Assembly (NCBI RefSeq): GCF_002113885.1 | Contig: NW_018404097.1 | Span: 285,364 to 349,363, forward strand | Direction of reading: 5' to 3' | DNA from: Mizuhopecten yessoensis | Lineage: Eukaryota | DNA: 64,000 bases | Part shown: one piece after another, positions 3,101-42,100 of the stretch | Numbering within the stretch: position 1 is the first letter of the stretch | Layout: each line of letters starts with the position of its first letter | Translations under genes and position numbers: made by a program | Notes under the pieces: generated by a model | Told to the model about the DNA's origin: nothing | What the model saw: only the letters and a program-made list of their open reading frames with translations | Databases searched by the model: none

Positions 3101-6100
3101 CATGCTTAACATCCTGGCATTGAAGTCAGACAGCCTCTCATACTCCTTGCCACGGTATATGAACACTTTGTTCTGTACGAATGCGGGGAATCCGCGCCCG
3201 AAGTAGCCGACCCTGAAATACTCGGGGTCTGCTCTCAACTCCTTTATGATACAGCTATACAGGTCGGCCTGTCGGCGCTGTAAATAAAATAACGCAGGGT
3301 ATGTCAATGCTTTAACTAAACCAGTGATGGATAATATGAATGTTGTAATAGGTAGTCATTTATTTAACAATATGTCTGGCTGTGTGCAATCTTACACAGG
3401 CAATACAGGGTATGACTAATACTGTCAACAAAGGTAGTGGACAAGTTTAATTATGTAAATACAGACAGCTAAGGGTTTGAACAATTCTGCTAAATTTTCT
3501 AATGTGAAGTATGTAATTTAATCAATATCTTTTTAAGAGCAAGAAATAAATGAACCATATATATATATATATAGGCATATACAGTAAACTGTGTGATCAA
3601 TAGTATACATTGACTTTATTGACCAGTATCATATTGTACTATACATTGACCAGTACGTATCACACTTAACTGACCAGTGCCACAATGTAAATTACTGACC
3701 AGTATCATATTGTACTACATTGACCAGTACGTATCACACTTAACTGACCAGTGCCAAGCTGTAATATACCGGTACTGACCAGTATCATATTTTACTACAT
3801 TGACCAGTACGTATCACACTTAACTGACCTGTGCCAAGCTGTAATATACTGACCAGAATCCTATTGTACTACATTGACCAGTACATATCACACTTAACTG
3901 ACCTGTGCCAAGCTGTAATATACTGACCAGAATCCTATTGTACTACATTGACCAGAACGTATCACACTTAACTGACCTGTGCCAAGCTGTAATATACTGA
4001 CCAGAATCCTATTGTACTACATTGACCAGAACGTATCACACTTAACTGACCTGTGCCCAGCTGTAATATACTGACCAGTATAATATTGTACTACATTGAC
4101 CAGTACATATCACACTTAACTGACCAGTGCCACGCTGTAATAGCTCGGTACTGACCAGTATCATATTTTACTACATTGACAAGTACGTATCACACTTAAC
4201 TGACCAGTGCCAAGCTGTAATATACTGACCAGTATAATGTTGCACTACATTGACCAGTGACACAATGAAATTACTTACCAGTATCATATTGTACTACATT
4301 GACCAGTACATATCACACTTAACTGACCTGTGCCAAGCTGTAATATACTGACCAGTATAATGTTGTACTACATTGACCAGTGACACAATGAAATTACTGA
4401 CCAGTATCATATTGTACTACATTGACCAGTACGTATCACACTTAACTGACCTGTGCCAAGCTGTAATAGACTGACCAGTATAATGTTGTACTACATTGAC
4501 CAGTGACACAATGAAATTACTTACCAGTATCATATTGTACTACATTGACCAGTACGTATCACACTTAACTGACCAGTGCTAAATTGTAATATACTGACCA
4601 GTATCCTATTGTATTACATTGACCAGTACGTATCCCACTTAACTGACCTGTGCCAAGCTGTAATATACTGACCAGTATAATATTGTACTACATTGACCAG
4701 TGCCACAATATAAATTACTGACCAGTATCACGCTGAGTCTCTCGTAGTCAAACAGCTCGCTCTCGTACAGATGAACCAACTCCTTACACAGCAAGATACC
4801 CTTCTCCCACATCTGTAAGATACAAAAATCATCTCATATATATATTACTATACCCTTCTCCCACATCTGTAAAATACAAAACTCATCTCATATATATATT
4901 ACTATACCCTTCTCCCACATCTGTAAAATACAAAACTCATCTCATATATATTACTATACCCTTCTCCCACATCTGTAAAATACAAAACTCATCTCATATA
5001 TATATTACTATACCCTTCTCCCACATCTGTAAAATACAAAACTCATCTCATATATATATTACTATACCCTTCTCCCACATCTGTAAAATACAAAACTCAT
5101 CTCATATATATATTACTATACCCTTCTCCCACATCTGTAAAATACAAAACTCATCTCATATATATATTACTATACCCTTCTCCCACATCTGTAAAATACA
5201 AAACTCATCTCATATATATATTACTATACCCTTCTCCCACATCTGTAAAATACAAAACTCATCTCATATATATATTACTATACCCTTCTCCCACATCTGT
5301 AAAATACAAAACTCATCTCATATATATATTACTATACCCTTCTCCCACATCTGTAAAATACAAAACTCATCTCATATATATATTACTATACCCTTCTCCC
5401 ACATCTGTAAAATACAAAACTCATCTCATATATATATTACTATACCCTTCTCCCACATCTGTAAAATACAAAACTCATCTCATATATATATTACTATACC
5501 CTTCTCCCACATCTGTAAAATACAAAACTCATCTCATATATATATTACTATACCCTTCTCCCACATCTGTAAAATACAAAACTCATCTCATATATATATT
5601 ACTATACCCTTCTCCCACATCTGTAAAATACAAAACTCATCTCATATATATATTACTATACCCTTCTCCCACATCTGTAAAATACAAAACTCATCTCATA
5701 TATATATTACTATACCCTTCTCCCACATCTGTAAAATACAAAACTCATCTCATATATATATTACTATACCCTTCTCCCACATCTGTAAAATACAAAACTC
5801 ATCTCATATATATATTACTATACCCTTCTCCCACATCTGTAAAATACAAAACTCATCTCATATATATATTACTATACCCTTCTCCCACATCTGTAAAATA
5901 CAAAACTCATCTCATATATATATTACTATACCCTTCTCCCACATCTGTAAAATACAAAACTCATCTCATATATATATTACTATACCCTTCTCCCACATCT
6001 GTAAAATACAAAACTCATCTCATATATATATTACTATACCCTTCTCCCACATCTGTAAAATACAAAACTCATCTCATATATATATTACTATACCCTTCTC

Positions 6101-9100
6101 CCACATCTGTAAAATACAAAACTCATCTCATATATATATTACTATACCCTTCTCCCACATCTGTAAAATACAAAACTCATCTCATATATATATTACTATA
6201 CCCTTCTCCCACATCTGTAAAATACAAAACTCATCTCATATATATATTACTATACCCTTCTCCCACATCTGTAAAATACAAAACTCATCTCATATATATA
6301 TTACTATACCCTTCTCCCACATCTGTAAAATACAAAACTCATCTCATATATATATTACTATACCCTTCTCCCACATCTGTAAAATACAAAACTCATCTCA
6401 TATATATATTACTATACCCTTCTCCCACATCTGTAAAATACAAAACTCATCTCATATATATATTACTATACCCTTCTCCCACATCTGTAAAATACAAAAC
6501 TCATCTCATATATATATTACTATACCCTTCTCCCACATCTGTAAAATACAAAACTCATCTCATATATATATTACTATACCCTTCTTCCACATCTGTAAAA
6601 TACAAAACTCATCTCATATATATATTACTATACCCTTCTGCCACATCTGTAAAATACAAACTCATCTCATATATATATCTTACTATAACCTTCTCCCACA
6701 TCTGTAAGATACAAAACTCATTTCATATATATATTACTATACCCTTCTTCCACATCTGTAAGATACAAAACTCACATGAATATATTACTTAGGTCCACAA
6801 ATTCATTATATCATTACCAGTAATGAGTATAACCAAATGGTCAACATCATGTTGTGTAAATGTGAGTGCAGAATCACCCTGCCATATTGAGACACAAGTG
6901 TGTCATATACTGACCTTGACCTCTCCTATACTGACCTTGTCCTTGTTACACTGACATTGTCCTTGCCATAAACTGACAAAGGTATGTACTGACTTTGCCT
7001 GGTCATATACTCCAATGACCTTACCCTTGTACATTTGTTGTGACCTCTCTGTATCCTTACATTGCCCTTGCCAGATATTGATCTAGATTCTTCATAAACT
7101 GACCTTAGCAATGCCATATACTGACCAAGTCATCGTCTTCTACTAACTGACCACCATCATATACTGACCTTGCCCTTGTCAAAGTAGGAGATGATATCGT
7201 AGTAGAGCATCTCCTTGAGTCCGCGGTGGGTGTGGACGTTCGGGTACCAGTTACTCTGGAGCATGAGGGGCAGGTTATCATCTGACCACTGTAATACAGA
7301 CAGCATTCATAATCATCACCATGTAGTTCAAAATTGTAGTTGACAATAAACATCACTCAATGATTTCATCAGCTAAGGTCATTGATCTTTTGGTATCCCT
7401 CCCACTCCGTAAGTCCAGCCACACACCTGTAGACAGTTAAAATTCCTTCCCAAACAACAACAACAAGCCTTTAGATGGTTAATATCTCTCCCCAACACAA
7501 CCACACACATATAGATGGCTGAGTTGTCTCCCCTGCCCTAGGAACACAATTAAAAGGTTGAAATCCCCTCTCCACAAATCACACCTGTAGAAATTTCGTA
7601 TCCCTCCCGACTTCACCACAAACCTGTAGATTATTATACTATTCCACCAAATCACTCACCTGTAGAAGGTTGACATGTAACATAAGGGTATTAGCTGCCT
7701 CAGTGTAGTTGTCACACTCAATGTGAAGATCACAGAGCTTGTACAGGTAGCGGATGTACATCTCCTGGCGATCAATGTCGTGGTAGAAGTTGAGTAAGTT
7801 CACTATACAGTTCATTCTGTGCTCCTTACTCTCGTACTGAATGATCTTGCGGTACTCCAGGAGGCGCTGCAATAGTCTTTTGATCACATCCACAAATGCC
7901 AGACCCTGCTGCCGCATCCCGTCATTACCATTGCACATTCGATGTAATCTGAAAATGTTCGAACACATGTTGTTATAATATAATTGTTGTTGGATTTCAA
8001 TAGAAGAAATCCTCCACAACAGTTTTAAGACATTGATAAGATACAGCTATACTATGGAGAAATACATCTCATAGATGTTTTGGCATTTAATTCTTGGGGA
8101 ATTCTACCCCCAATCTTATAATAATATTATACATGTAGTATTTTACGACAGTATGTTTCAGCTTCTCTCATATCGTTGAGGGTCTAGCTAACATATTCAG
8201 CTTCTCTCATATCGTTGAGGGTCTAGCCGTAGTCGTTGAATATTCCATTTCTCATGCAGCTTCTCCAGGGTCGCTCGCAGAGTCTAGTAGCTTCTCTGGA
8301 ATCGTCCAGGGTCTAGTTGCTTCTCTGTATCTTTGGAGTCTTGCTCGATCATGTAGCTAGCTACTCTGGGACACCTCAGAGTCCAGATTCTTTAAATTTT
8401 AAATATCCTATTAGTAAGTTTAATCGTTTTGGTATAGAGTGAGTAGCCCCTGATACGCCAAACTTGTAGCTTGTATGTATTATAACTGTAGTAATAAACA
8501 GGTTAAACTGTTCTTGCGTGTTTAGTTGTATATAAAATGATAGTTTGATATTTTAATATTAAACTATAGTTTATATACAATGAGTTTGCCTTGCTGCCTA
8601 TGTTTTCTGTTTTCTGTAATGTAGGTCGTATGTATTTATGTAGTTGCCAATTAGCATGTATGTTAATGAGAGTAGAGGGATGCTGCTGATTGACCAATCA
8701 GCGTCTGCCTGAGGGAATGCCCTGTTAGGGATTTGGAGCCCCCACAGCATAGTTTTCTGAATCATTGAAGGAGATTGTTGTGCATTCCCACCCGCCATCC
8801 CCTTCAGCACCTGTAATTGTACTGTTTATTCATGTAATATATATATATAATCTGTACTTTATATATGATTGTAATACCATATACGTATGCTATAACATTA
8901 CTTTGGTGCTTTGGTTTTGCTATACCCTTAAACTGTCATATGAATGTCATCTCAGTTGGTCTCCTGATTTTGTTTTAATTGTTTGGGCTACTCACTCTTA
9001 ATTTTAAAACATATAGTTTAATTTTGGCATTTAATTCTTGGGGAATTCTACCCCCAATCTTATAATAATATTATACATGTAGTATTTTACGACAGTATGT

Positions 9101-12100
9101 TTCAGCTTCTCTCATATCGTTGAGGGTCTAGCTAACATATTCAGCTTCTCTCATATCGTTGAGGGTCTAGCCGTAGTCGTTGAATATTCCATTTCTCATG
9201 CAGCTTCTCCAGGGTCGCTCGCAGAGTCTAGTAGCTTCTCTGGAATCGTCCAGGGTCTAGTTGCTTCTCTGTATCTTTGGAGTCTTGCTCGATCATGTAG
9301 CTAGCTACTCTGGGACACCTCAGAGTCCAGATTCTTTAAATTTTAAATATCCTATTAGTAAGTTTAATCGTTTTGGTATAGAGTGAGTAGCCCCTGATAC
9401 GCCAAACTTGTAGCTTGTATGTATTATAACTGTAGTAATAAACAGGTTAAACTGTTCTTGCGTGTTTAGTTGTATATAAAATGATAGTTTGATATTTTAA
9501 TATTAAACTATAGTTTATATACAATGAGTTTGCCTTGCTGCCTATGTTTTCTGTTTTCTGTAATGTAGGTCGTATGTATTTATGTAGTTGCCAATTAGCA
9601 TGTATGTTAATGAGAGTAGAGGGATGCTGCTGATTGACCAATCAGCGTCTGCCTGAGGGAATGCCCTGTTAGGGATTTGGAGCCCCCACAGCATAGTTTT
9701 CTGAATCATTGAAGGAGATTGTTGTGCATTCCCACCCGCCATCCCCTTCAGCACCTGTAATTGTACTGTTTATTCATGTAATATATATATATAATCTGTA
9801 CTTTATATATGATTGTAATACCATATACGTATGCTATAACATTACTTTGGTGCTTTGGTTTTGCTATACCCTTAAACTGTCATATGAATGTCATCTCAGT
9901 TGGTCTCCTGATTTTGTTTTAATTGTTTGGGCTACTCACTCTTAATTTTAAAACATATAGTTTAATTTTGGCATTTAATTCTTGGGGAATTCTACCCCCA
10001 ATCTTATAATAATATTATACATGTAGTATTTTACGACAGTATGTTTCAGCTTCTCTCATATCGTTGAGGGTCTAGCTAACATATTCAGCTTCTCTCATAT
10101 CGTTGAGGGTCTAGCCGTAGTCGTTGAATATTCCATTTCTCATGCAGCTTCTCCAGGGTCGCTCGCAGAGTCTAGTAGCTTCTCTGGAATCGTCCAGGGT
10201 CTAGTTGCTTCTCTGTATCTTTGGAGTCTTGCTCGATCATGTAGCTAGCTACTCTGGGACACCTCAGAGTCCAGATTCTTTAAATTTTAAATATCCTATT
10301 AGTAAGTTTAATCGTTTTGGTATAGAGTGAGTAGCCCCTGATACGCCAAACTTGTAGCTTGTATGTATTATAACTGTAGTAATAAACAGGTTAAACTGTT
10401 CTTGCGTGTTTAGTTGTATATAAAATGATAGTTTGATATTTTAATATTAAACTATAGTTTATATACAATGAGTTTGCCTTGCTGCCTATGTTTTCTGTTT
10501 TCTGTAATGTAGGTCGTATGTATTTATGTAGTTGCCAATTAGCATGTATGTTAATGAGAGTAGAGGGATGCTGCTGATTGACCAATCAGCGTCTGCCTGA
10601 GGGAATGCCCTGTTAGGGATTTGGAGCCCCCACAGCATAGTTTTCTGAATCATTGAAGGAGATTGTTGTGCATTCCCACCCGCCATCCCCTTCAGCACCT
10701 GTAATTGTACTGTTTATTCATGTAATATATATATATAATCTGTACTTTATATATGATTGTAATACCATATACGTATGCTATAACATTACTTTGGTGCTTT
10801 GGTTTTGCTATACCCTTAAACTGTCATATGAATGTCATCTCAGTTGGTCTCCTGATTTTGTTTTAATTGTTTGGGCTACTCACTCTTAATTTTAAAACAT
10901 ATAGTTTAATTTTGGCATTTAATTCTTGGGGAATTCTACCCCCAATCTTATAATAATATTATACATGTAGTATTTTACGACAGTATGTTTCAGCTTCTCT
11001 CATATCGTTGAGGGTCTAGCTAACATATTCAGCTTCTCTCATATCGTTGAGGGTCTAGCCGTAGTCGTTGAATATTCCATTTCTCATGCAGCTTCTCCAG
11101 GGTCGCTCGCAGAGTCTAGTAGCTTCTCTGGAATCGTCCAGGGTCTAGTTGCTTCTCTGTATCTTTGGAGTCTTGCTCGATCATGTAGCTAGCTACTCTG
11201 GGACACCTCAGAGTCCAGATTCTTTAAATTTTAAATATCCTATTAGTAAGTTTAATCGTTTTGGTATAGAGTGAGTAGCCCCTGATACGCCAAACTTGTA
11301 GCTTGTATGTATTATAACTGTAGTAATAAACAGGTTAAACTGTTCTTGCGTGTTTAGTTGTATATAAAATGATAGTTTGATATTTTAATATTAAACTATA
11401 GTTTATATACAATGAGTTTGCCTTGCTGCCTATGTTTTCTGTTTTCTGTAATGTAGGTCGTATGTATTTATGTAGTTGCCAATTAGCATGTATGTTAATG
11501 AGAGTAGAGGGATGCTGCTGATTGACCAATCAGCGTCTGCCTGAGGGAATGCCCTGTTAGGGATTTGGAGCCCCCACAGCATAGTTTTCTGAATCATTGA
11601 AGGAGATTGTTGTGCATTCCCACCCGCCATCCCCTTCAGCACCTGTAATTGTACTGTTTATTCATGTAATATATATATATAATCTGTACTTTATATATGA
11701 TTGTAATACCATATACGTATGCTATAACATTACTTTGGTGCTTTGGTTTTGCTATACCCTTAAACTGTCATATGAATGTCATCTCAGTTGGTCTCCTGAT
11801 TTTGTTTTAATTGTTTGGGCTACTCACTCTTAATTTTAAAACATATAGTTTAATTTTGGCATTTAATTCTTGGGGAATTCTACCCCCAATCTTATAATAA
11901 TATTATACATGTAGTATTTTACGACAGTATGTTTCAGCTTCTCTCATATCGTTGAGGGTCTAGCTAACATATTCAGCTTCTCTCATATCGTTGAGGGTCT
12001 AGCCGTAGTCGTTGAATATTCCATTTCTCATGCAGCTTCTCCAGGGTCGCTCGCAGAGTCTAGTAGCTTCTCTGGAATCGTCCAGGGTCTAGTTGCTTCT

Positions 12101-15100
12101 CTGTATCTTTGGAGTCTTGCTCGATCATGTAGCTAGCTACTCTGGGACACCTCAGAGTCCAGATTCTTTAAATTTTAAATATCCTATTAGTAAGTTTAAT
12201 CGTTTTGGTATAGAGTGAGTAGCCCCTGATACGCCAAACTTGTAGCTTGTATGTATTATAACTGTAGTAATAAACAGGTTAAACTGTTCTTGCGTGTTTA
12301 GTTGTATATAAAATGATAGTTTGATATTTTAATATTAAACTATAGTTTATATACAATGAGTTTGCCTTGCTGCCTATGTTTTCTGTTTTCTGTAATGTAG
12401 GTCGTATGTATTTATGTAGTTGCCAATTAGCATGTATGTTAATGAGAGTAGAGGGATGCTGCTGATTGACCAATCAGCGTCTGCCTGAGGGAATGCCCTG
12501 TTAGGGATTTGGAGCCCCCACAGCATAGTTTTCTGAATCATTGAAGGAGATTGTTGTGCATTCCCACCCGCCATCCCCTTCAGCACCTGTAATTGTACTG
12601 TTTATTCATGTAATATATATATATAATCTGTACTTTATATATGATTGTAATACCATATACGTATGCTATAACATTACTTTGGTGCTTTGGTTTTGCTATA
12701 CCCTTAAACTGTCATATGAATGTCATCTCAGTTGGTCTCCTGATTTTGTTTTAATTGTTTGNGGGTACGTACCTATGGTAGGTATTGTATAGTGTTATTA
12801 GGGGTACGTACCTATGGTAGATATTGTAATGCGTAATTAGGGGTACGTACATATGGTAGGTATTGTAAAGTGTTATTAAGGGTACGTACCTATGGTAGGT
12901 ATTGTATAGTGTTATTAGGGGTACGTACCTATGGTAGATATTGTTATGCGTAATTAGGGATACGTACCTATGGTAGGTATTGTACAGTGTTGTTAGGGGT
13001 ACGTACCTATGGTAGGTATTGTATAGCGTTGTTAGGGGTACGTACCTATGGTAGGTATTGTATAGCGTTATTAGGGGTATGTACCTATGGTAGGTATTGT
13101 ATAGTGTTATTAGGGTCACGTACATATGGTAGGTATTGTAATGCGTCATTAGGGGTACGTACCTATGGTAGGTATTGTATAGTGTTATTAAGGGTACGTA
13201 CCTATGGTAGGTATTGTATAGTGTTATTAGGGGTACGTACCTATGGTAGGGATTGTATAGTGTTATTAGGGTCACGTACATATGGTAGGGATTGTAATGC
13301 GTCATTAGGGGTACGTACCTATAGTAGGTATTGTATAGTGTTATTAGGGGTATGTACATATGGTAGGTATTGTATAGTGTTATTATGGGTACATACATAT
13401 GGTAGATATATATATATATATTGTATAGTGTTATTAGGGGTACATATATATGGTAGGTATATATATATATATATTGTATAGTGTTATTAGGGGTACATAC
13501 ATTAGTAGGTATTGTATAGTGTAATTAGGGGTACATACATATGGTAGGTATATATATATATATATATATATTGTATAGTGTTATTAGGGGTACATACATA
13601 TGGTAGGTATATATATATATATTGTATAGTGTAATTAGGAGTACATACATATGGTAGGTATATATATATATATATTGCATAGCGTTGTTAGGGGAATGTA
13701 CATATGGTAGGTATTGTATAGTGTAATTAGGGGTTCGTACATATGGTAGGTATTGTATAGTGTTATTAGGGGTACGTACATATGGTAGGTATTGTATAGT
13801 GTAATTAGGGATACGTACATATGGTAGGTATTGTATAGTGTAATTAGGGGTACGTACATATGGTAGGTATTGCATAGTGTTATTAGGGGTACATACATAT
13901 AGTAGGTATTGTATAGTGTTATTAGGGGTACGTACATATGGTAGGTATTGTATAGTGTAATTAGGGATACGTACATATGGTAGGTATTGTATAGTGTTAT
14001 TAGGGATACGTACATATGGTAGGTATTGTATAGTGTAATTAGGGATACGTACCTATGGTAGATATTGTATAGTGTAATTAGGGGTACGTACCTATGGTAG
14101 GTATTGTATAGTGTAATTAGGGGTACATACATATGGTAGATATTGTATAGTGTTATTAGGGGTACGTACATATCGTAGATGAGATCCATATACTCCTCGT
14201 CTCCATAACCTCCCTCCACCAGGGCATCCAGTTTCATGATGAGCTCGTTTTCCGTCTACAGATAAACAGTTAATACAGTACAGACATAATTTAAACAATA
14301 AGGAACACATAACTATAACATAATGTACAGTAACATAACAATTCATTAAAGGATAGAATATACAGTAGGGAAAAGCTACAATGTATCTTTTGCCCAATAT
14401 TCAATAACTTTGCTTTATCCAGACAATGCCTTTTAATTGTATTGAAATACCTGTACAGATTCTCACCTGGTCAAAGTTGCCTTTGATCTTTCTGGTGACT
14501 GGATCTACCTGTGTAAACTCACACTGCATCATGTCAAAGAAAATAGGAATAGTGGCCTTTCGCAACTCTGGGGGGAAAAAATGAAGAAAAAAAAATAATG
14601 AAAGAAAAAATTCGAAATTTGCTCTCTGCTTTATGTATGATGCATGCTGATAAGTGTTAATTGTAGTGATGGGCTATCGTTTAAAAATCGTAATCGATAA
14701 TTGGTCTATAATCGGAAGTAGTAAAACAATCAATGATCTATTGTTGCATAATCAGTTTATAATTTTATGGGAATGAATACCAAAACAAAGTCTGAACACT
14801 ATTTTCACCACATCAACAGACTGAGTTGTAAACGATACATTAGCTCTCCTTCTTTTATAATGAATGGATATCAAGCATTTTTTATGCATTTTATCAATCA
14901 TATAGTAAAAATCATAAGATTATATGCCTTTCAAAGCATTGTTTACTTTACACAGAAGACATGTAAACACTTTGATCTAATAATGAACCGATTATGTCGA
15001 TTAGGGAATTGCAATCATTAATCGGAGTCAGAAATGGCAAACCAATCGATTTTCGATTGTAATCGATCATCAGCCCATCACCAGTTAATTGTCTAAGACT

Positions 15101-18100
15101 TTCAGGAGTTACCTAGTTCTGGAACCAGCGTCATCTCAAGGATTGGCTCCACTAGAGTAGGGATGAAGTATTTCTTGTTCACTCCTAAAAAAATAAAAAT
15201 ATTGTTACCAATGATAATGTAGATACAGCTTGTGATCACCATTGACTGTGTAATTACAATGTATAATTTCCATTATGACTGATCACCATTAACTGTAATT
15301 ACAATGTATAATTTCCATTACGACTGATCACCACTGACTGTAATTACAATGTATAATTTCCATTACGACTGATCACCATTAACTGTAATTACAATGTATA
15401 ATTTCCATTAAGACTGATCATCTTATATTACTTTAGTTGTTTTAAGGGTATTTCTCCTTACAAGTTTGTACATTCATTGATATAAACAATTGAATTATTC
15501 CACGTTATCAATGGTATGTTTCAGAGAGAAAATTATGTAATAACTTAACAACTAAATGGTTGTTGGTAAAACACATTTACTGCATGTGTATTTTGGGATT
15601 TAAGACTTTTAAAAATCACCTGGAAATGTGAAATTATATCTATACATGTATTAGATAAATATTGCTGACACAAACATTGTATATAACACACACAAAAATC
15701 TTACACACATCTCATAACATCATAAAGTTATAGAATGCTGATCTATTGGTGTTGCCATAGTAACCGGTTGCTTACCTAATCTTGACCACATCTGACGTAT
15801 TTCAAATCCCATTTCACGTCGCATGTCACTGTACCTAAAGAAAACAGCATAACAGAGACAATTTAGCTCATTCATCCCTGAAATTTCATAATGAACTATT
15901 CCAACCTTTGAAATGGAAGAGTTCAAATGTGTCTTCAGGGGTGAATGAGTTTATATATTGAACACAACTGATTGAATACATATCAGTAAGGAATATGAAC
16001 ATGTCAAAATAAAACGCTAACCAGTCCACCACTGTTAGATTAGAGTTCTTAAAGCTTGGTATATGACAGTGTCAGGAGTAAATAACACTTGTGATTAGTT
16101 AATATGCACGGAGATCAACAGGCAGGATATTCATGACCATACTAACTTTTGATTGGATATCAGACACATGATTTTCCCAAACAATCTTTAACAATCTTGA
16201 AAACAATGTTTCAAATAATGTTTTGACAACAGCAAATTGTTACAACATAAATAATGACCTTGAACTTATTTCACCGTAAGATATACTGACCTTGACACAA
16301 TTTTGTTGCGCTTGGAGACGGAGAACTGCTCCAGCTGTAGATGGCGCTGCGTGAGGAAGGCTATTGCACAATGGAAGAAACAGCTCCACAACTGAAACAC
16401 AACAGGTATTGTTATAGGTTGTCAGGCTAACATCATGGAGATGACCGTGAAAATTAGTGAACAAAATGTAAATTAGCACAATCAAGTTTTAATTTGAAAT
16501 TTAAATGACTTGAAGCCAGCAAATGTTCTTAACCTAATCAAATTATCGTATTGATGTTTGACCTAAAATTTTACTGATTGAATTACCTGTTCCTCAAATG
16601 ATGAAGTGAACTTTTCACAGATAGTCTGGGCAAAGAACCTCAAAGCTCGGAGAATGATGCTGTAAAATAGATATAGCAAATATATCATAGGTTCTTTACA
16701 ATCAAATATTTCTTTTACACAATTAGATGCACAATTGACTTGCTCTAGAAAAATGACCAGATATTGGGTAAATAAATATATATCACTTCTTGAAAGACAA
16801 TAACCACAACTGCATGAAATATCATATAAAGAACTGTAGTAATTAAAGGTTTTCTAAAAACATTGTGTGTTACATATTTCTGTGGCAAATATAAACTGTA
16901 TTTTATTTTACCTGTCATAACTGTTGTCCTCAGAAAAAAAGTACTTGTCTTATTCAAAAATCAAATCCTATAGTCAGGACAGGAAAAACCTTTATAAGAT
17001 AATGGGATCTAATTAATATTGAAAACAGAAATACCTACAAATGACTTCTCAACTGTTAATTGTCACTGAAGAAATCACTGACCTGTTCTGAAGCATGATC
17101 ATGGCTAGCCAGTCACGTGCAAACACATTTTCTTTGATGAGGACCTGGAACAGCGTAAGGATCTCCATGAGGAAGTCCTGTAAGTCAGTGAGGAAGGAAA
17201 ACTCCCGGATATAATGAAGGTAGTGGTTCTCTGTCATCTTTCTCAGTATGGACATCAGGACAGCCACACAGCGACTCTGTTTAGATGACACAATTTACAG
17301 ATTTAATTACAGACGTCAGGACAGACACACAATGACTCTGTTTGGACGACACAATGTACAGATTTAATTACAGACGTCAGGACAGACACACAATGACTCT
17401 GTTTGGACAACACAATAGACAGATTTAATTGCAGACGTCAGGACAGACACAACCAGACTCTGTTTGAACGACACAATAGACAGATTAAGTTAGACATCAG
17501 CACAGAAACACATCCACTCTGTTTGGATAACACAATAGTCAGATTTATTTACAGAGGTCAGGACAGACACAACCCGACTCTTTTCGGACAATATGATAGT
17601 CTGATTTGAGCAGACATAAGTTAAGCAACACATTGACCTTAGGATGTGATGGAGAATGTTCAGGGGTCCCGATAGGGGAGGTGTTAAGGTCCTAATGATG
17701 AGGGGCAAAGGTCTTCATAGGGGAGATCAGTGCAAAGGTCCTGAGGGTGAGGGGCAGAGATCCTTATGGGGATGTGCAGGGCTATGTTTATTACTCAGCC
17801 AACAGATAAACATAGACACTTAAAATGAAACAACAAATACATTTATTAAATCTCTTTAAAAAGACAATAAATACCAACACCCTTACACAGTGAAACACTA
17901 GGAGGTGGCATAGCTGACATTTTTTTTCCATCATGAAACAGTCTTTTAACTCAATTTTTTTTTTTATCAAATCTAGATTTATTCAATTTTCATATTTTGT
18001 GCCTATAGTTAAAATTGTCTGTGCATTAAAAAAACCTTATTTTGTTGAAAACATATTAAAATTTTATAAAATTTTGAACTTTAATCGAGAGGTAATTGCC

Positions 18101-21100
18101 AAGCCCTACATATAGAGTGATGTAAACCCACACACATCCACTGACCAGATCTGTATAATGCTTGCTGCACTAGCTATAGTACAGCAACATTGTACAGTCT
18201 CCATGGACTTCTATAACTGTCCAAGATGGCATCTATCACAAAACTTATTTATATAGGCATAGTCTGAGGTTTCTGATAGCTCTCACATACATACATGTAT
18301 ATAGTATAGAGTATAGATTAACTTGAACTGTAAGCCAAAACTAATACCCCCCGCTCTGACATGAAATTGGTCAAACTGGAAATATAGTATACACTGTAAT
18401 GTGTATTCATTGATGTCAGTACTTCTACATACATGGCTTGTTTCATGTATGTTTTGTTTAGTCATGATTTTTTTATGTCAAAAAAATGCACTTAAATGTT
18501 CATGTACATTTTGTATCTTTCTTTGTTGCTTATTACAAAAATATATATATGTGCTTTGGCAGGTCTATTTCCTGTGCTGTGTCCATCTTGATATCATAGC
18601 TAGTCATATGCATCTCTATGCAAGTTGTTGATATATTTATGCTAATGAGTGGGGTAGATTTTGACCAATCAGCATTATCCCCTAGAGGGGTATTAGTATT
18701 GACAGCACCCTATTCATTCTTTGTTTTTGGCGGATTATCATCGTTTGTTTTTATGCACCCACCCACCGTCCCCAGATTCACCTATATGTATTTTATTTTT
18801 TATTTTTTCACATGCTGTGACCTGTCTTTTCCTGTATATTGCATTGTTCCTTATATTGTTAGGTGGGCTACTCACTCTTTGTAATTTATTCTTTAAACCA
18901 GGTTTTAATTCCAGGCTTTTAATTCCAGGCTTTTAATTCCAGGGGAATTTTACCCCCAATACTTTATTAATTGAAATATTATTCATTTACTATGTCAGTA
19001 GCTTCTATATATGTATCATCATCTCCAGGAATTCTTAGAGTCAAGTCGCTTCTCTGCAGCTCAGTAGAGTCAAGTTTCTTCTCTAGGTCTATTCGATTTC
19101 AAGTCTTAGAGTCAAGTCGCTTCTCTGTAGTTCAGTAGAGTCAAGCTTCTCCTCTAGGTAAGAATATTCTATTTCTCATCTTCTCCATAAATTTACTTAA
19201 GAGTCAAGTTGCTTCTGTGGAGTTTCGGCAGAGTCAAGCCTCTTCTCTAGGTGTCTTTTTGGAGTCTTGATGTTAAATTTTAAGTTTAAGTTGTATTAAG
19301 GGTATGTTAATTAGCAAGTAGAGAGTAGCCCCTGATATGCCAAATGTTAATAATGTATACATGTACTTCTTAGTGTATCTTATTCATGTTTTTCGCTAAC
19401 ATGTGTAATAAACAGATAAACTGTTTATCGTGTTTTAGCTGTATATAAATGATTGGTTAGAGCCCCTGCCACGCCCACCTACAGTGAAACATTGACTTGT
19501 TCAGGCAGTACATTTGTAGAAGTAAACTTACTGAGGTATACACATGTATAGGTGGTTTAAATAGTACAGGTGATATAAACCGAAAATTTAAAACATTTGG
19601 AGTAAAGATTGCTGCTCTAATACAATGATAAATGAACGGCTCACATATTGTAGTGTTGAGGTAAGTGAGAACCCACGGCATGCTCACATATAAACAACTA
19701 GTGTAATGCCCTTTAGTACATGTCTGTATATTTAAACCCTTCTGGTTGAAAATGTTCACGTTTATTTTTACGTCATTCATCTTTCATCTAATCCTGTTTT
19801 AACTTCAATGATAACAAACATTATTGTAACTATGACGTGAATAACGTAAGTAGCGACATAATTAACACACTGGAAGTGTTAACGTGAACTGTGTATGGCC
19901 CACACTGATGGTTGACTTATAGCATGCATTTCTTTCACGAAAACATGCATTCCTTACAACCATGATTCTGTAGATGTACATCTGTTTTCATCATTTTGAC
20001 CCCTAACCTCTCATCCCCTGAATATGGCCTTTAACTATACTTTTGACCTTTAACCCTTTCTTTTATGAACTATATTTCTCCTTATGAATTACCCCTGATA
20101 TAAGAATGCAATAATTCAATTTATTATCCATGCATCAAAATTGTTCAGGGCATGATACAATTTATATCATTCCAACATCGTTGTCCCCTCCCTATACACT
20201 TAACCTGTTTTCTTTCGACTCCAACTCGCCTATTAAAAACCATGAGCTGTTATGACCCCTATTCCTCCTGCTTATGACCTCTTACCTTCCTTTTGACCTC
20301 TAGTCCTGTTATAACAGCTAACCAGCCTTATGACCTCTTACCTTCCTTTTGACCTCTAGTCCAGTTATAACAGCTAACCAGACTTATGACCTCTTACCTT
20401 CCTTTTGACCTCTAGTCCAGTTATAACAGCTAACCAGACTTATGACCTCTTCCCTTCCTTTTGACCTCTAGTCCTGTTATAACAGCTAACCAGGCTTATG
20501 ACCTCTTACCTTCCTTTTGACCTCTAGTCCAGTTATAACAGCTAACCAGACTTATGACCTCCTACCTTCCTTTTGACCTCTAGTCCTGTTATAACAGCTA
20601 ACCAGGCTTATGACCTCTTACCTTCCTTTTGACCTCTAGTCCAGTTATAACAGCTAACCAGACTTATGACCTCTCACCTTCCTTTTGACCTCTAGTCCTG
20701 TTATAACAGCTAAACAGACTTATGACCTCTTACCTTCCTTTTGACCTCAAGTCCTGTTATAACAGCTAACCAGACTTATGACCTCTTCCCTTCCTTTTGA
20801 CCTCTAGTCCTGTTATAACAGCTAAACAGACTTATGACCTCTTACCTTCCTTTTGACCTCTAGTCCAGTTATAACAGCTAACCAGACTTATGACCTCCTA
20901 CCTTCCTTTTGACCTCTAGTCCTGTTATAACAGCTAACCAGACTTATGACCCCCTAACCCTTCTCATCACTTTTGAACTACATTCCTTGTGACATATAAC
21001 CTTCCTATTTGACCGCTAATCCTCTTGTTTAAGACTTCTAACACCCAAAGAACTAGTTGTTTTAAAAATTCATACTATAAACCTAGTTATAGTATCACAA

Positions 21101-24100: not shown

Positions 24101-27100
24101 GAACTAACATCTAGTATTTATGGGACAAGTCTACACAGAACTGCGACCTACCGCCTCTTTGGAAGTCTTGTCCATACACACAGCTGAGCGGATCACAATC
24201 CTCAGGTTTTCCTTCATGATCAGACCTATATCATTGCTGTGGGGGCCCTGAAAATACACCAACAGATAACATTTCATCAGCTCTGCTGTTTAAAACTCAT
24301 CTCAGGAGAGATTGAGGGAAGGCAGTTGGAAGGGATAAGGTTGGAGATACATTTATACAAACTTTATTTTGCACTGTAAATTGACAGGTTGAGGGGCCAT
24401 AAGGGGCCAGGATTTGGTTAGACCTGGGAGGAAGATGAGGAAGAGAGGGGATATGTGGAAAAGAAAGATAATCATGCAGGGTGGAGGGGGGGGGGGATTG
24501 AAAAGTGTGAGGTAAGAGGGAGTTAGGGGAAGAGGAAAGGTAGGATTAAGGTGAGGTGTGTGAGGGTGGGAGGTAACAGAGGGGGAGGAGGCGGGAATAC
24601 CTACCGTGCTCTTGTCATGCATCTGATCCATGACATTGCTGAGTACATTTACACAATCCTCCAGTTCCTCCTGATCCTCCAGTAAAGGACCTGTGTGTTT
24701 CAGAATCATAGGCAGCAAGATAGCACGGCAATCTGAAACAAGCATATCCATGGTAACACAGAGACACAAATAGTATCCAGGGTAACATGATATAGAGACA
24801 CTGAACATATTGATCTCCATGGTAATGAAATATACTGAAACTCACTGATCTCCGTGGTAATGAAATATATTGAAACTCACTGATCTCCATGGTAATGAAA
24901 TATACTGAAACTCACTGATCTCCATGGTAATAAAATATACTGAAACTCACCGGTCTCCATGCTAATGAAATATACAGAAACTCACTGATCTCCATGGTGA
25001 AAAGATACAGTGACACTGAAACATTGATCTCCATGGAAACATGATACACTAGAGACTAAACTGTGGATTTCTATGGTAGCTAGATATTAAGAAACAAACA
25101 TTCATCTCAATGATAACACTATATCTGGACAGTTTGAAATACTCATTGGTTTCATTTATTACAAAACAAGATCAATATCAATATATTTGGTCTCCAGTAA
25201 CTCCGAGAACATCTCCAACATTGGTTGTCATAGTTACAAGATCATGTGTCTGAAACGAGGTCACCTTAATTTTTATGTATTGTTTGATGGCCCCTTGTAA
25301 ATTAAAGCATGTTTGGGTAAAAGACTGCGTTAAGCACAATGACGTACCTGCTGATTTAAATAACACACTATATACAAGGTCATCTATACACTTCAACTTC
25401 TGTTTCGTCAGTCGTTCTTTTGGCACATTGTTGATGAATTCTACCATCAATTTACTGAAATGTAAAGTCAATAACATGTTCACAGATTATCTATCTAGTA
25501 ACACTGTTGATTTATATTTATATAGTTACATCCTTATTCTCACAGAGTTTTGTATATTTATGACAATCGTATTAAATGCAAATTCTTTCTAACCATACCT
25601 GCTTTGTATATTCATAGTTATACATATCAACATGTGTGTAAAATGTGTGAGACATACCTGAGCTCCAGTGGGTCAAACACATGCATGATGTCAGGTATAG
25701 CGGAGCACAGGTACTTCAGAGCTGAGCCCTGGTAAAAAATACCAACAAAATAGTAAGTATTAAAACCAACAACATACATGATAAGTGTTAAAATCAAAAT
25801 CAATACTGAGTGTTACAATGTAAGATCAATACTTTGTAAGACAAGGCAAGTTTCTCTTAAACAAGAAATTGCTAATTGATCCCTTTTTATACTTGTCACA
25901 CTCACTGACGAAATAATGAATCAAAGGTTACATCTTACACAGGGTATCATCACACCACACAGGAGGCTAACTCAATGTTGGATGACTTGTTTTCAAAATA
26001 CAAAGAAAACTAGGTTATGAAAGCTTAAATTTCGGCGTTTTATGTGCTTATTTCATACCAAAGAGTTACAGGTACTAAAGAGTTCCAACAAGAACAGTAA
26101 CTGCTGTTTACCTGGGCTAGGAGTGTGTTGTCACTGGTGTATAACATCATACCACTGATGGCCTGGATTAACTGTTTCATCTGTAGCTCAAACAGCTGTT
26201 TACCTCGGCCATCATTCAACCTGAAATATCAATTATCCAAATTAACTTTGCTTAATGGATATTTCTATTCCGTTTACAGAACAGTTACAGTAGAGAATGT
26301 CCAAAAGTATCTCTCTATTTACAGACCAGTTACTGTAGAGAATGTCCAAAAGTATCTCTCTATTTACAGACAAGTTACTGTAGAGAATGTCCAAAAGTAT
26401 CTCTCCATTTATAGAACAGTTACTGTAGAGAATGTCCAAAAGTATCTCTCCATTTACAGACCAGTTACTGTAGAGAATGTCCAAAAGTATCTCTCTATTT
26501 ACACAAAGTATCTCTCTATTTACAGACCAGTTACTGTAGAGAATGTCCAAAAGTATCTCTCTATTTACAGACAAGTTACTGTAGAGAATGTCCAAAAGTA
26601 TCTCTCCATTTACAGACCAGTTACTGTAGAGGATGTCCAAAGGTATCTCTCCATTAACAGAACAGTTACTGTAGAGAATGTCCAAAAGTATCTCTCCATT
26701 TACAGAGCAGTTACTGTAGAGAATGTCCAAAAGTATCTCTCTATTTACAGACAAGTTACTGTAGAGAATGTCCAAAAGTATCTCTCTATTTACAGACAAG
26801 TTACTGTAGAGAATGTCCAAAAGTATCTCTCTATTTACAGACAAGTTACTGTAGAGAATGTCCAAAAGTATCTCTCCATTTACAGAGCAGTTACTGTAGA
26901 GAATGTCCAAAAGTATCTCTCTATTTACAGACAAGTTACTGTAGAGAATGTCCAAAAGTATCTCTCCATTTATAGACCAGTTACTGTAGAGAATGTCCAA
27001 AAGTATCTCTCCATTTATAGAACAGTTACTGTAGAGAATGTCCAAAAGTATCTCCATTTACAGACCAGTTACTGTAGAGGATGTCCAAAAGTATCTCTCC

Positions 27101-30100
27101 ATTTACAGTAACAGGTCTGTAAATGGAGAGATTCTTTTGGACATTCTCTACAGAACAGTTACTGTAGAGAATGTCCAGAAGTATCTCTCCATTTACACAA
27201 AGTATCTCTCTATTTACAGACCCGTTACTGTAGAGAATGTCCAAAAGGATCTCTCTATTTACAGACCCGTTACTGTAGAGAATGTCCAAAAGAATCTCTC
27301 CATTTACAGACCAGTTCCTGTAGAGGATGTCCAAAAGTATCTCTCCATTTATAGACCAGTTACTGTAGAGAATGTCCAAAAGTATCTCTCCATTTACAGA
27401 CCTGTTACTGTAGAGAATGTCCAAAAGTATCTCTCCATTTACAGATCAGTTACTGTAGAGAATGTCCAAAAGTATCTCTCTATTTACAGAACAGTTACTG
27501 TAGAGAATGTCCAAAAGTATCTCTCCATTTATAGACCAGTTACAGTAGAGAATGTCCAAAAGTATCTCTCCATTTACAGAACAGTTCCTGTAGAGAATGT
27601 CCAAAAGTATCTCTCCATTTATAGACCAGTTACAGTAGAGAATGTCCAAAAGTATCTCTCTATTTACAGACTAGTTACTGTAGAGAATGTCCAAAAGTAT
27701 CTCTCCATTTATAGACCAGTTACAGTAGAGAATGTCCAAAAGTATCTCTCCATTTACAGAACAGTTACTGTCGAGAATGTCCAAAAGTATCTCTCCATTT
27801 ACAGACCTGTTACAGTAGAGAATGTCCAAAAGTATCTCTCCATTTACAGAACAGTTACTGTCGAGAATGTCCAAAAGTATCTCTCCATTTACAGAACAGT
27901 TACTGTCGAGAATGTCCAAAAGTATCTCTCCATTTACAGACCTGTTACAGTAGAGAATGTCCAAAAGTATCTCTCCATTTACAGAACAGTTACTGTCGAG
28001 AATGTCCAAAAGTATCTCTCCATTTACAGAACAGTTACTGTCGAGAATGTCCAAAAGTATCTCTCCATTTACAGACCTGTTACAGTAGAGAATGTCCAAA
28101 AGTATCTCTCCATTTACAGAACAGTTACTGTCGAGAATGTCCAAAAGTATCTCTCCATTTACAGAACAGTTACTGTCGAGAATGTCCAAAAGTATCTCTC
28201 CATTTACAGAACAGTTACTGTCGAGAATGTCCAAAAGTATCTCTCCATTTACAGAACAGTTACTGTCGAGAATGTCCAAAAGTATCTCTCCATTTACAGA
28301 ACAGTTACTGTCGAGAATGTCCAAAAGTATCTCTCCATTTACAGAACAGTTACTGTCGAGAATGTCCAAAAGTATCTCTCCATTTACAGAACAGTTACTG
28401 TCGAGAATGTCCAAAAGTATCTCTCCATTTACAGAACAGTTCCTGTAGAGAATGTCCAAAAGTATCTCTCCATTTACAGACCTGTTACAGTAGAGAATGT
28501 CCAAAAGTATCTCTCCATTTACAGAACAGTTACTGTCGAGAATGTCCAAAAGTATCTCTCCATTTACAGAACAGTTACTGTCGAGAATGTCCAAAAGTAT
28601 CTCTCCATTTACAGAACAGTTCCTGTAGAGAATGTCCAAAAGTATCTCTCCATTTATAGACCAGTTACAGTAGAGAATGTCCAAAAGTATCTCTCCATTT
28701 ACAGAACAGTTACTGTCGAGAATGTCCAAAAGTATCTCTCCATTTACAGAACAGTTCCTGTAGAGAATGTCCAAAAGTATCTCTCCATTTATAGACCAGT
28801 TACAGTAGAGAATGTCCAAAAGTATCTCTCCATTTACAGACTAGTTACTGTAGAGAACGTCCAAAAGTATCTCTCCATTAACAGAACAGTTATTGTAGAG
28901 AATGTCCAAAAATATCTCTCTATTTACAGAACAGTTACTGTAGAGAATGCCCAAAAGTATCTCTCTATTTACAGAACAGTTACTGTAGAGGATGTCCAAA
29001 AGTATCTCTCTATTTACAGAACAGTTACTGTAGAGAATGTCCAAAGTATCTCTCTAACGGTTTGTAATGTTATTAATTTCACATGAAACATTTAATTAAA
29101 TATGAATGTCACTTTCAAAACCAGATGCCCTCCAATGAACCATAATTATACTATAGAATTATAGTATGTGATGTTTACAGATCTCATGCAATTTCTCCAC
29201 AATGTCAGAAATCCATCACGCCTTTCTTCCAACACACACATAATGAACAGCTCTAGAACTCAGCGAGGAGCTGGTTTTTAGGGGTTTGTCCAATTGAACA
29301 TAAAAATGTACAAAATGATAGTATCCAAACTGTACAGATTCAGTTACATACACAGAGAAGTGATTCCTAGACTGCACTATGAACTTGAAGAGGTATTCCA
29401 GTGACTTCATGGCTCTAATCAACACTTTCTGATTCACCTCCATGGCCCTGTCAACGTAGTCTCGCAGGATCAACATCAGTTTCCTGTCAACACACATGTT
29501 ATGTTAATGTACTGTTTACTTCTTAGGGCCAATGTTCCTATCCACACATTACTGTTACTGTCAATGTTCCTATCCACACATTTCTGTTACTGTCAATGTT
29601 TCTATCCACACATTACTGTTACTGTCAATGTTCATGTATGTCACATAACTGATAAACTTCTCATAATAAATTCACTTCTAATACTAACAGCATCTAGCTG
29701 AATATTACATTATATTTTAATGAAATCTAAATTGATTAAAAAGATATCATCAAAATAAGATCTAGTTTCTTTAACTCATTTTTAGTTCTCTATACAGTTT
29801 GTTAATGAAATATCCTTACTACATCTTCTTGTCAGTTTTTTACCTTTGCCACAAATGAACAAATTTTTGCAATTAGATTTATCAATGAGCAGCTACACTT
29901 TCAATAAACACATATTTGCCAATTTCATACATACTCATAGGCCATGGCAAAGCTGAATGAGGTGGTTACATAGGCATCCAGAACAGGCCGGAACTGGTGG
30001 TACTTCCTGTCTGAGATCAGGCCAATGATGTGTACCTACAGAAAATACAAGGTCACAAGGTGATAAAGTCAAGGTCACCAACCGATATCTAACATTTTTA

Positions 30101-39100: not shown

Positions 39101-42100
39101 ATGGTCGCTTCAGCCCTTTCGTTTGTTTCTTGTCGTCTACATCTTTCGTATCCATGACCCCTGTATCAACAGGAAATGTAAACTTGACGAAGTTCTCAAA
39201 ACCACACAATTTAAATAAAATCAAACATACATATACATGTTTACCTATACATCATTTTGATATACATGTATTACCTATACATCATTTTGATATACATGTA
39301 TTACCTATACATCATTTTGATATACATGTATTACCTATACATCATTTTGATATACATGTATTACCTATACATCATTTTGATATACATGTATTACCTATAC
39401 ATCATTTTGATATACATGTATTACCTATACATCATTTTGATATACATGTATTACCTATACATCATTTTGAAGTGTTTAACTGAACTGTTTTTACAAACTA
39501 AACAGATGTCTCCATTAAGGTTTATCTTGTGCTCAACATCATAAATGCACAATTTCATTTATTTGCTTATCAATATTTTTGATAGAAAATAATATTCATC
39601 TCAAGAATGAAATCATTAAAAGTAACATGATGTAAATATGAGTGGGATTTGAGAATTTAATTGGGGGGTTTTTCCTGGAAAATTTTACCTCAAAAACTTG
39701 CAATGGGAAATATTACGAATAGAAAGGTTGAACTTTCACATGCGCCTCTGTAGTTGATAATGTTAAACATGTACTAGGTAGGTGTTTGAAGTCTTTTTTG
39801 AGATTTTGTCACTCAAGATTTCTACCCATTAAAGTTTGATAGTTTGGCAAGTATGTGTGAAACAGTATATGTACTATGTGTCATAGAATGAGCTAACTTA
39901 CCTATTCTTACAATTTGAAAAACTAAAAATACTTTTTCTCGCTGTCGGTCTTTAGCACCTAAGTCCTGTAAACAGAAGTAAATACATCATTACTGTGTTG
40001 TTGTTACGACTGGCTTTTATATTGGTAAATCAGTGATTCTGAGATTGATCAGGACTACCAACAAGTAACAGGATAACCTTATCAGTTATGTGTGACATGA
40101 AAAGTAAATATAGCCAACACTGAACACCTGTAGGAAGTTCTGGAAATCAGGGAGATCAGAAATGACTATTGTATATATATCCGTTTTCATGTCAAATGTT
40201 CAAGTTCAAATTTCTAAATTATTTATAAGCGTATCACATATTAACATAAACATTGTTTTTATATAGTATAACATATAAACGACTAGTACTTAGTCAAAAC
40301 TACTCACATTTGAAAATATTGATAAGACAAGTGTTTATATACAATGGTTCAGATTGGGATTTGAAATGAGACCCTCTCAATATCAGACAAATCATCTAAA
40401 CAATAATCTTCACAAGTATAAATCTATCAGACTTGTACACACCAGCTACATGTGCTGTATCTGACAGTATACGTACCGTGAACACCACTTTATAATTGTT
40501 CAGCATTTCTAAGTTCTTTGGTACCCCTCCTCCCTTGGCCCATTTCACTACATAATTTTCACTGAAAAGTCAATAATATCACAGTGTTACTTTATTTCAT
40601 TTTTCACATTCGTGTTCAACTTTATTTAAAACAATAACCTTTAATTACACACTCCAGAAAAGTTGTCCACACAAGTATATTTAAGTCTAAGTTTTAAAAG
40701 GTACAAATTCTCACCTGATAAATTTTCCAAATTTGGCATCATAAAGGCTCATCAAGATATCTGCATCCTCGCCGATCCGACAAACAAAATTTCTAAGTTT
40801 GACAAAAAGGTTAAAAGTGTGTGGCCATGTGAGATTGAGTCCTTCCTCCTTGCCAGTGTTTACCTGTAAATCATAAACAACAGTTATACAGGTGTGGCTT
40901 GTAATCTGGTGGAAAGTTCCGTCGATAAACTCCAAATATAACAGATCGGATCAATCTACGTTAAATACAAATTAACCACTGTCTGCCTCATAGTGGCATT
41001 GCAGTTTTATTAATTAGCATTTAATGACACACAATCAAAGTGCCCTTGGCACTGGAGGATTGGCGGCCTGAGTGTGTTTTTCTACAGATTTCAGGCTACT
41101 GTATTCATTCATGCGGAAAGAAATAAAACAAAGCTTGGCCCGTTTCGCTCCTGTTACAAAAGTGACAATAGTGTCTGTTTTACGTTTTACTTTATGACTG
41201 TTTTATACCAAAGTAATACCTGTAGCATACATTAACAACAGTACAATGCAACTTCAATGTCTTTTTTACTTCACACCATATATTCTATTCCGTCTTTACG
41301 TATTGCAGAGTTATCTTCTCTCGTGAGCAGGTATTGATTGTTACGTCATTGGTTTGTGAGAGTAACGTCATCAATTTTTGAGAAAACGACGTAATTTTCT
41401 CACACAAACAAATGGCGTAACAATCAATACCTGCTAACAAGAGAAGATACCTCTGCAATACACAAAGACGGAATACTTCGATTTGACTATGGTATGGTTT
41501 TATCTGGCATGGTTACATCATGGTAATCATCAGCAAATTGATACTCTTAACATTTATGGTAAGTTTCATTATGCTGTAACATAATTATTTTTGAAAACAG
41601 TAATAGATAAGCACAGCCATGTACAGAAAAAGTCCTATATAGAGATGTTTCGAGCTGTTGTGAATTGACATCAATGTTGTATTGTTTCCTGCCATTACTA
41701 TTACCACCTGTAGATTGTATTAATTACAATAGCATGTTTTATACTGTGTTTACCTTTTCTGCTTTGATTCGATCAGCTGCAAGTTCATGCTGAAAAATTA
41801 ACATTAGAAATCTGATATGAACATAAGAACTCCATAATTAGTGACAAACAGATACATAACTACGTAAACTTCTACACAACTGTACAAATTGAGAACATAA
41901 TTTTCTAAGAAGTAAATGTTCATGGCGCAAAAAAATAATCTTTTTGCCAAGAATAAAGAACTTTGACTGTGAAAATATCTGAGTATACAGTAAAATGAAG
42001 ATAAATAGTATTTCAATTTTACAACAGTGAATACAAACTCATTTCTTGAAGACTTGTTTTGATTAAACACTGTCTGATCAGTAAGTCAGGATCTTTGCTT

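Follow-up and report, generated by a model that had tools for sequence, protein, structure and literature searches.

We describe a family of non-coding repeats of about 1 kb in the scallop Mizuhopecten yessoensis, found in a 64,000-nucleotide stretch of contig NW_018404097.1 (positions 285,364 to 349,363 of the forward strand; hereafter the window, whose own numbering is used throughout). It is represented there by a head-to-tail array with a period of 944 nt (8078-12761, plus strand) and by one diverged single copy (about 18395-19461, plus strand), the left edge of which is set by T-skew only. The family is real and probably an ordinary non-autonomous scallop transposon. We tentatively read its unit as a non-autonomous retroelement that was inserted as a partial tandem in the manner of Penelope-like elements (PLEs), a reading to which we assign a probability of a little over one third. 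It is suggested by the array, in which a partial copy precedes full monomers, by the homology of both members, which stops at about the same 3′ point, and by a palindrome at the monomer junction that, in contrast to the sites of tyrosine recombinases, keeps its symmetry up to a loop of 2 nt.

Two diverged members with the same ordered blocks

The relationship of the two members is evident from a local alignment of the whole array unit with the single copy, which scored 151.5 and was reached by none of 300 shuffles (mean 37.1, sd 4.5); the reverse-complement control was at chance (159/300 shuffles). Seven blocks are held in common in the same order, and every block named in the initial annotation was found at both places. 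On the plus strand a CCAAT-box block (8690-8702; single copy 18661-18673) is followed by a C-rich, GC-box-like block (8787-8802; 18758-18773), the left arm of a long-range inverted pair (8985-8998; 18865-18878) and a GGGG/CCCC hairpin (9040-9054, in the first copy 8096-8110; 18942-18956), the block of which starts at 8086 in the array and at 18932 in the single copy. Further downstream on the same strand lie iterated imperfect-palindrome subrepeats (9101-9335; 19037-19270), the right arm with a conserved 13-nt extension (9380-9406; 19320-19344; core 21/22 identical; block starts at 8441 and 19323), and a 3′ block made of AATAAA, an AAACAG/CTGTT hairpin and a TATA-like end (9435-9485; 19405-19454). 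Within the latter the AATAAA and AAACAG hairpin block starts at 8491 and 19405 and the TATA block at 8524 and 19437. The alignment of the 3′ block scored 60 against a shuffled mean of 15.9 (0/300). The spacers between the blocks are mostly unalignable, with 67, 254, 218 and 163 of 300 shuffles scoring as high. Conserved blocks amid diverged spacers point to an old family with functional signals.

The five blocks from the CCAAT box to the right arm are unique in the window even when two mismatches are allowed, apart from the reverse strand of the CCAAT block itself and one match with two mismatches at 32003. The AATAAA/AAACAG hairpin and TATA blocks are unique as exact matches only. Neither a third family member nor any other pair of dispersed repeats was found within the window.

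Some boundaries had to be redrawn. The single copy was originally given as 18395-19483, but its homology can be demonstrated from about 18635 onwards, and the edge at 18395 reflects base composition, T-richness beginning near 18400. The inverted pair, which had been described for both members, is a perfect 14-nt pair in the array alone (8985-8998 with 9380-9393); in the single copy the right arm comprises 12 nt with one mismatch, and the 14-mer is absent there even at two mismatches. The claim that the unit has no coding capacity was borne out, the longest stop-to-stop frames being 82 amino acids (aa) in the array and 94 aa in the single copy. None of four element frames tested matched a Pfam family. 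Protein searches, in which two of the 30 listed element frames were used, gave no match for the 94-aa frame among 1.84 billion representatives and one candidate, none at E≤1, for a 73-aa frame that was compared with proteins of near length only.

Several local features accompany the blocks. In the single copy a 14-mer is triplicated at 18903-18944 (plus strand), in the position equivalent to the left end of the array, and it may mark a site prone to slippage or breakage. The CCAAT box of the array is one half of a perfect 8-bp inverted repeat (8685-8702) with CCAAT-like sites on both strands, which does not occur in the single copy. Behind the 3′ block of the single copy follows a GC-rich stretch, a candidate tail (19455-19483, plus strand). 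It resembles the right-arm block of the array (1/1000 shuffles, for a segment picked after the fact), and on the minus strand it reads GC box, CCAAT and TATA in succession.

The array and its monomer junction

The array (8078-12761) opens with a left-truncated copy, continues with four full monomers and breaks off within a further copy at an assembly gap. The left partial copy (8078-8553, plus strand) runs from the hairpin block to the 3′ end and abuts the host intron about 130 nt from the exon. It is followed by the first full monomer (8554-9497, plus strand), which is in the phase of the single copy. Both members are T-rich on the plus strand, with AT skews of -0.21 in the array, first monomer included, and -0.26 in the single copy, whereas three flanking stretches range from -0.05 to +0.08. 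The host DNA directly left of the array (8065-8077) is a small hairpin with 5-bp arms and a 3-nt loop, which is loosely like the unit sequence it replaces.

At the monomer junction lies a fold-back palindrome (8526-8580; arms 8526-8552 and 8555-8580) that recurs every 944 nt and was overlooked in the initial annotation. The last 27 nt are followed by a 2-nt loop and then by their reverse complement, with 24 of 27 columns complementary. Its score of 39 compares with a maximum of 32 in 60 locally shuffled units and with 19.5 for the best palindrome of the single copy. The position of the palindrome coincides with the end of the homology of the single copy; homology between the members ends just past the TATA-like block, at about 8548/9492 in the array and about 19460 in the single copy, and the right (3′) end agrees between them. 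At the left end of the single copy an inverted half-site is undetectable (44/300 shuffles score as high). Direct repeats of at least 6 nt around the single copy amount to six 6-mers, none of which is located at its edges, and there is no target-site duplication (TSD).

The different phase of the two members was formerly taken as a circular permutation, and a circular or rolling-circle intermediate was suggested for the element. The phase is more simply described as a left-truncated partial copy (8078-8553) ahead of full monomers in the phase of the single copy. Since truncation of a tandem is sufficient to produce the same apparent permutation, no circle is required.

The five identical copies are the most eye-catching and yet the least reliable feature of the locus. 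The period of 944 nt is exact over 8078-12761 (3740 matching positions, 4.96 copies), and all 10 pairwise comparisons of units are free of differences up to the N. This much of the claimed fivefold concatemer stands. The array, however, halts 37 nt short of five units at position 12762, the sole N of the window, which is an assembly join masking its right end, so that only one end is visible and the array is not a delimited element. The M. yessoensis RefSeq assembly is, according to PMC10294476, Illumina-only with a contig N50 of 65 kb. From the stop at this N we suspect, with somewhat better than even odds, that a short-read assembler circled round a genuine end-to-start junction and thereby exaggerated copy number and perfect identity; the true array could be as short as 1.5 units. 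Recent genuine amplification would give the same appearance. That both the left junction and the end-to-start junction are genuine is very likely, because without reads across them an assembler could not have joined the sequence. An assembly artefact, which the initial annotation itself had named as the case against its view, probably accounts for copy number and identity but not for the family and the junction.

The suspicion of looping is also fed by two other minisatellites of the window, in which 30 and 27 copies form perfect cores, whereas seven other long arrays examined are heterogeneous. The two, with units of 54 bp (4944-6585) and 56 bp (52643-54151), consist of identical cores with variant outer units, possibly again a product of assembler looping.

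A proposed Penelope-like insertion and alternative readings

That the unit is a non-autonomous mobile element which forms head-to-tail copies was proposed earlier and is supported here, as two diverged members share the same ordered blocks and the array holds the end-to-start junction that belongs to the phase of the single copy. The unit appears to be made only of signals of the terminal-repeat type, a promoter-like half with the CCAAT and C-rich boxes and behind it a self-complementary half with a poly(A) signal at its end. It may be copied by the reverse transcriptase/endonuclease of a PLE, for example a hammerhead-less Naiad. Read-through transcription of tandem copies would yield a plus-strand RNA longer than the unit, and reverse transcription would start at the conserved 3′ end and stop at a variable point, which would leave a partial tandem, the so-called pseudo-LTR arrangement. 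The palindrome now present in each monomer could go back to a former snap-back event at the 3′ end. The steps that involve RNA, an enzyme or a circle are those which we infer, and the same applies to the plus strand as the sense strand.

PLE insertions are described by Craig et al. (2021, PMC8557442) as 5′-truncated partial tandems, often accompanied by an inverted truncated copy next to them, through which the unit comes to be flanked by repeats, and by a 30-40-bp tail. According to the same source Naiads are without a canonical hammerhead and dominant in bivalves, and Chlamydomonas has multicopy head-to-tail non-autonomous forms. In the scallop array the truncated copy (8078-8553) precedes full monomers, and an inverted 3′-terminal fragment lies by the 5′ side of each monomer in the form of the 27-nt arm; no such fragment is detectable in the single copy.

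Several observations speak against a PLE origin. The GC-rich stretch at 19455-19483 offers a candidate tail of 20-29 nt, shorter than the published 30-40. No remnant of a PLE protein linked to the unit was found, and exact motif searches of the Naiad/Chlamys/Hydra consensus supplement (PMC8557442), in which we found no scallop species named and in which line breaks can hide motifs, revealed nothing resembling the unit. In length the single copy comes to about one full unit, like a solo repeat and not like a randomly truncated insertion. Strong upstream promoter motifs fit long terminal repeat (LTR) or split-repeat elements at least equally well. A folding bias toward the plus strand is seen only in the array and is missing from the single copy. 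Finally, the subrepeat hairpins vary in their loops and contain a single G-U change but nothing compensatory, and they do not demonstrate an RNA stage.

Part of this evidence suits a close rival, in our estimate doubtful but to be taken seriously, in which the unit represents the split direct repeats of a tyrosine-recombinase (YR) retrotransposon of the Ngaro/PAT type. The single copy would then be a solo A+B repeat that recombination had left behind or that had moved in trans. The array would consist of B-A-B multimers, formed when circular AB DNA integrated at an existing B|A junction or when an assembler looped over a B1-A2-B2 end, and the palindrome would be the recombination junction. The block order of the unit may resemble that of the A/B repeats of fish Ngaro elements. 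The single copy has the length of one unit, with a promoter half preceding a poly(A) half, and it lacks a TSD, as this rival would have it. Ngaro elements have the structure A1-[open reading frames (ORFs)]-B1A2B2 and leave solo AB repeats (PMC8547959), in Trypanosoma cruzi the SIRE repeat is the counterpart of A2+B2 of VIPER (PMC6681497), and Ngaro and DIRS types are listed for bivalves in PMC10294476. A reverse transcriptase (RT) or YR was absent from the 37 frames scanned, out of 214 window frames of at least 60 aa; a solo AB repeat would carry no ORFs, and the missing A1-[gag, RT/RNase H, YR]-B1-A2-B2 layout does not exclude the solo reading. The left end of the array, however, lies inside the unit and against the host intron and exon, which leaves no space for A1 and ORFs, the left end of the single copy shows no half-site above chance (44/300), and the junction is without the 6-8-bp spacer that, together with 11-13-bp arms, is given for YR sites in PMC3212892. 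The published A+B lengths consulted are also shorter, with 236+152 bp in Xenopus (bioRxiv 10.1101/2021.08.05.455354) and 140-675 bp in the kinetoplastid elements covered in PMC6681497, and PMC10294476 reports few copies of Ngaro in bivalves. The geometry of the internal complementary region of DIRS was discarded on inspection, as there are no long inverted terminal repeats and the candidate halves are in the wrong order.

The remaining transposon types rank low; each of them fails a defining terminal feature. A rolling-circle, Helitron/Helentron-like non-autonomous DNA element, with arrays from skipped termination and the arms as subterminal repeats round central repeats, is unlikely. Self-complementarity on both strands and a minus-strand GC hairpin 18 nt before the visible end of the array would suit it, but the 1-12 nt next to the left arm hold no short inverted repeat, a tetranucleotide microsatellite is missing, the right arm is not directly followed by a palindrome, conserved blocks reach more than 200 nt to the left and 120 nt to the right of the arms in both members, and neither visible end is CTRR. 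The ends expected of the Helitron-type element suggested earlier were not found, the unit having neither the HINE-type ends (5′ subterminal inverted repeat with inverted repeat, microsatellite, 3′ subterminal inverted repeat with palindrome) nor a 3′ hairpin with CTRR. We consider it improbable that the unit is a DNA transposon in tandem, be it a KolobokP-like (LTDR-INT)n with an arm-bounded LTDR of 409/467 bp or a 942-bp element with the 27-nt junction arms as terminal inverted repeats (TIRs). KolobokP is present in M. yessoensis, forms multimers and, according to PMC9587614, has LTDRs of about 450 bp with 11-18-bp TIRs (RR...YY), and the arm-bounded segments of 409 and 467 bp start with GG and end with CC. 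The array, though, starts at neither type of arm but inside an arm-bounded segment, in the single copy family sequence continues beyond both arms, at which no TSD is present, and 409 bp is too little for the size to which LTDRs are constrained; about 450 or 660 bp and a TSD of 3-5 bp are given in PMC9587614. Five window motifs had no match in those PMC9587614 supplements that were searched, the scallop and oyster LTDRs displayed there are dissimilar by eye, and for the 942-bp variant the left 27-nt arm is absent from the single copy. Least probable among these is a solo LTR (Gypsy/BEL) or an element like a terminal-repeat retrotransposon in miniature (TRIM), with fixed TG...CA ends and an array from local amplification. 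The T-rich single copy lies between TGTA at 18395 and TACA at 19480-19483, it contains CCAAT, TATA-like and AATAAA motifs, and tandem TRIMs exist in bivalves (PMC6934838). Against this the flanks, TACAC and GTGAA, contain no 4-6-bp duplication, the array junction is a palindrome and not CA|TG, the single copy has no terminal direct repeats, and biv-TRIM has repeats of 202-218 bp and an interior of 77-80 bp (PMC6934838). An LTR with amplified interior, as once proposed, does not hold, as both ends of the single copy are contained in the array unit, CA|TG is not found at the junction and a TSD is missing from the single copy. A mitochondrial control-region insert was rejected on inspection, the GC skew being about 0.02. 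A small chance, roughly that of the rolling-circle element, is left for something other than the readings listed here.

Self-complementarity and ribozyme searches

In comparison to dinucleotide shuffles the arm-bounded domain reached folding z-scores of -8.7 (plus) and -4.3 (minus strand) in the array and -4.4 (plus) and -5.0 (minus) in the single copy, while 10 of 12 background stretches were within -1.8 to +1.6; such scores are inflated by tandem palindromic subrepeats. In seven subrepeats of equal length (six distinct, from 11 listed starts) a bulged hairpin of seven pairs is kept in 92.9% of cells. This shows self-complementarity and is not proof of RNA as the working form. Elsewhere in the window, the minus strand of 45000-45399 folds better than its shuffles (z -4.5), and a search there for inverted repeats of at least 15 nt was negative; 41286-41475 is a 190-bp fold-back element with 80-nt arms, 89% complementary, around a 30-nt spacer, probably a miniature inverted-repeat transposable element.

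The earlier statement that there is no canonical hammerhead core is confirmed by Rfam and core-pattern scans, which detected no ribozyme in either member. At E≤10 Rfam returned three and four chance matches for the two members, none of them a ribozyme, the CUGANGA half-core is absent from both strands of both, and scans for hammerhead, twister and pistol cores were negative; the short junction pattern for the hepatitis delta virus (HDV) ribozyme is too loose to inform. Two candidates were rejected, namely a hammerhead-like string with one mismatch on the minus strand of the array subrepeats, which is not in the single copy, and an HDV-like pseudoknot, whose second helix is not retained in the single copy. 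Membership of the retrozymes, formerly considered, does not hold without a hammerhead and with a unit of 944 nt, far above animal retrozymes.

The conserved 13-nt extension behind the right arm, in a block with 21 of 22 positions identical, starts with CUGAU like a hammerhead core. The equivalents of the catalytic guanines G8 and G12 of the hammerhead are missing from it. In their arrangement the long-range stem and the extension correspond to a stem I, closed by a 400-nt loop, with a hammerhead core behind it. There is a slim chance that they constitute an undescribed RNA motif for self-processing or circularisation, cutting 1-kb monomers from tandem transcripts.

Location within a DOCK1-like gene

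The whole window is occupied by one gene. Pfam matches to DOCK domains were obtained in minus-strand frames, and tblastn with the M. yessoensis DOCK1-like protein placed residues 1-1434 along the full window. The exon that borders the array intron (7651-7947, minus strand, about aa 1159-1257), taken as 7663-7959 for the comparison, is 100% identical to this protein over 96% of the query, and the preceding exon (aa 1130-1158) is located at 14169-14255 (minus). The array thus occupies the intron between residues 1158 and 1159 (about 7948-14168); the two exons encode adjoining residues, therefore no exon was lost in the gap. The single copy sits in a different intron, at about residues 925-929, and both members are antisense to the gene. 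An unrelated 39-bp minisatellite (12763-14178) lies on the far side of the N and reaches the next exon. The 39-bp unit extends into the end of the exon at 14169-14255 and seems to include the splice donor of the gene strand. This minisatellite and another one at 26269-29054 are at, or at most about 50 nt from, ends of DOCK1 exons. ARAGORN identified no tRNA gene in the window.

Relatives and comparison with known systems

The right-arm motif had no match in the GTDB genomes, and the hairpin 19-mer had seven, against 8.7 expected by chance, none of which matches over more than 51 nt around the motif. Searches of phages and plasmids by blastn gave no match. No paper with a match to six window motifs was retrieved from the literature, nor a description of the scallop unit family, which says nothing on Repbase or Dfam, and 12 of the 33 supplementary files of PMC10294476 (Martelossi) contained none of the motifs.

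Unknown repeats make up on average about 10% of the annotated mollusc repeats (PMC10294476). If ordinary, the family adds one more unclassified bivalve repeat to these, and its classification would improve scallop repeat annotation and caution against taking perfect arrays at assembly gaps for fresh concatemers. It would matter more if the unit turned out to accompany Naiad or Ngaro elements in large numbers as a non-autonomous partner, since little is defined of the signals by which these transpose, or if the stem and its motif were catalytic. The latter would make it a larger, new kind of retrozyme and could explain how hammerhead-less PLEs process tandem RNA.

Among known systems the non-autonomous PLEs (Chlamys, e.g. 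MRC1, and the bivalve Naiad clade; PMC8557442) share with the scallop unit a truncated leading copy, head-to-tail multicopy organisation and an inverted terminal fragment, as well as the lack of a canonical hammerhead and of an evident TSD. In contrast to them, the 1-kb unit with its CCAAT and C-rich boxes has no sequence link found to a PLE 3′ end, is not inserted in a (TA)n microsatellite and has a shorter candidate tail. Solo AB repeats of Ngaro/PAT/VIPER (PMC8547959; SIRE, PMC6681497) are alike in the non-coding copy of unit length, the B-A-B tandem order and the missing TSD, but the scallop unit is longer, has no A1 or ORFs, begins its array inside the unit and has a junction that is not YR-shaped. 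Cg_HINE/Helentron elements (PMC7492417) likewise have inverted arms round central repeats, a downstream hairpin and no TSD, whereas the scallop arms are internal instead of subterminal and there is no 5′ inverted repeat or microsatellite module. With the KolobokP LTDR multimers (PMC9587614), a lineage present in M. yessoensis, the unit has in common GG...CC arms bounding 409-467 bp and tandem organisation; it differs in that its arms have no TSD, its array is not LTDR-bounded and no sequence match was seen. The metazoan non-LTR retrozymes (PMC7761336) are also strongly self-paired, non-coding tandem monomers, but of about 150-300 nt versus 944 nt, and they reportedly lack the promoter-like motifs which the scallop unit possesses.

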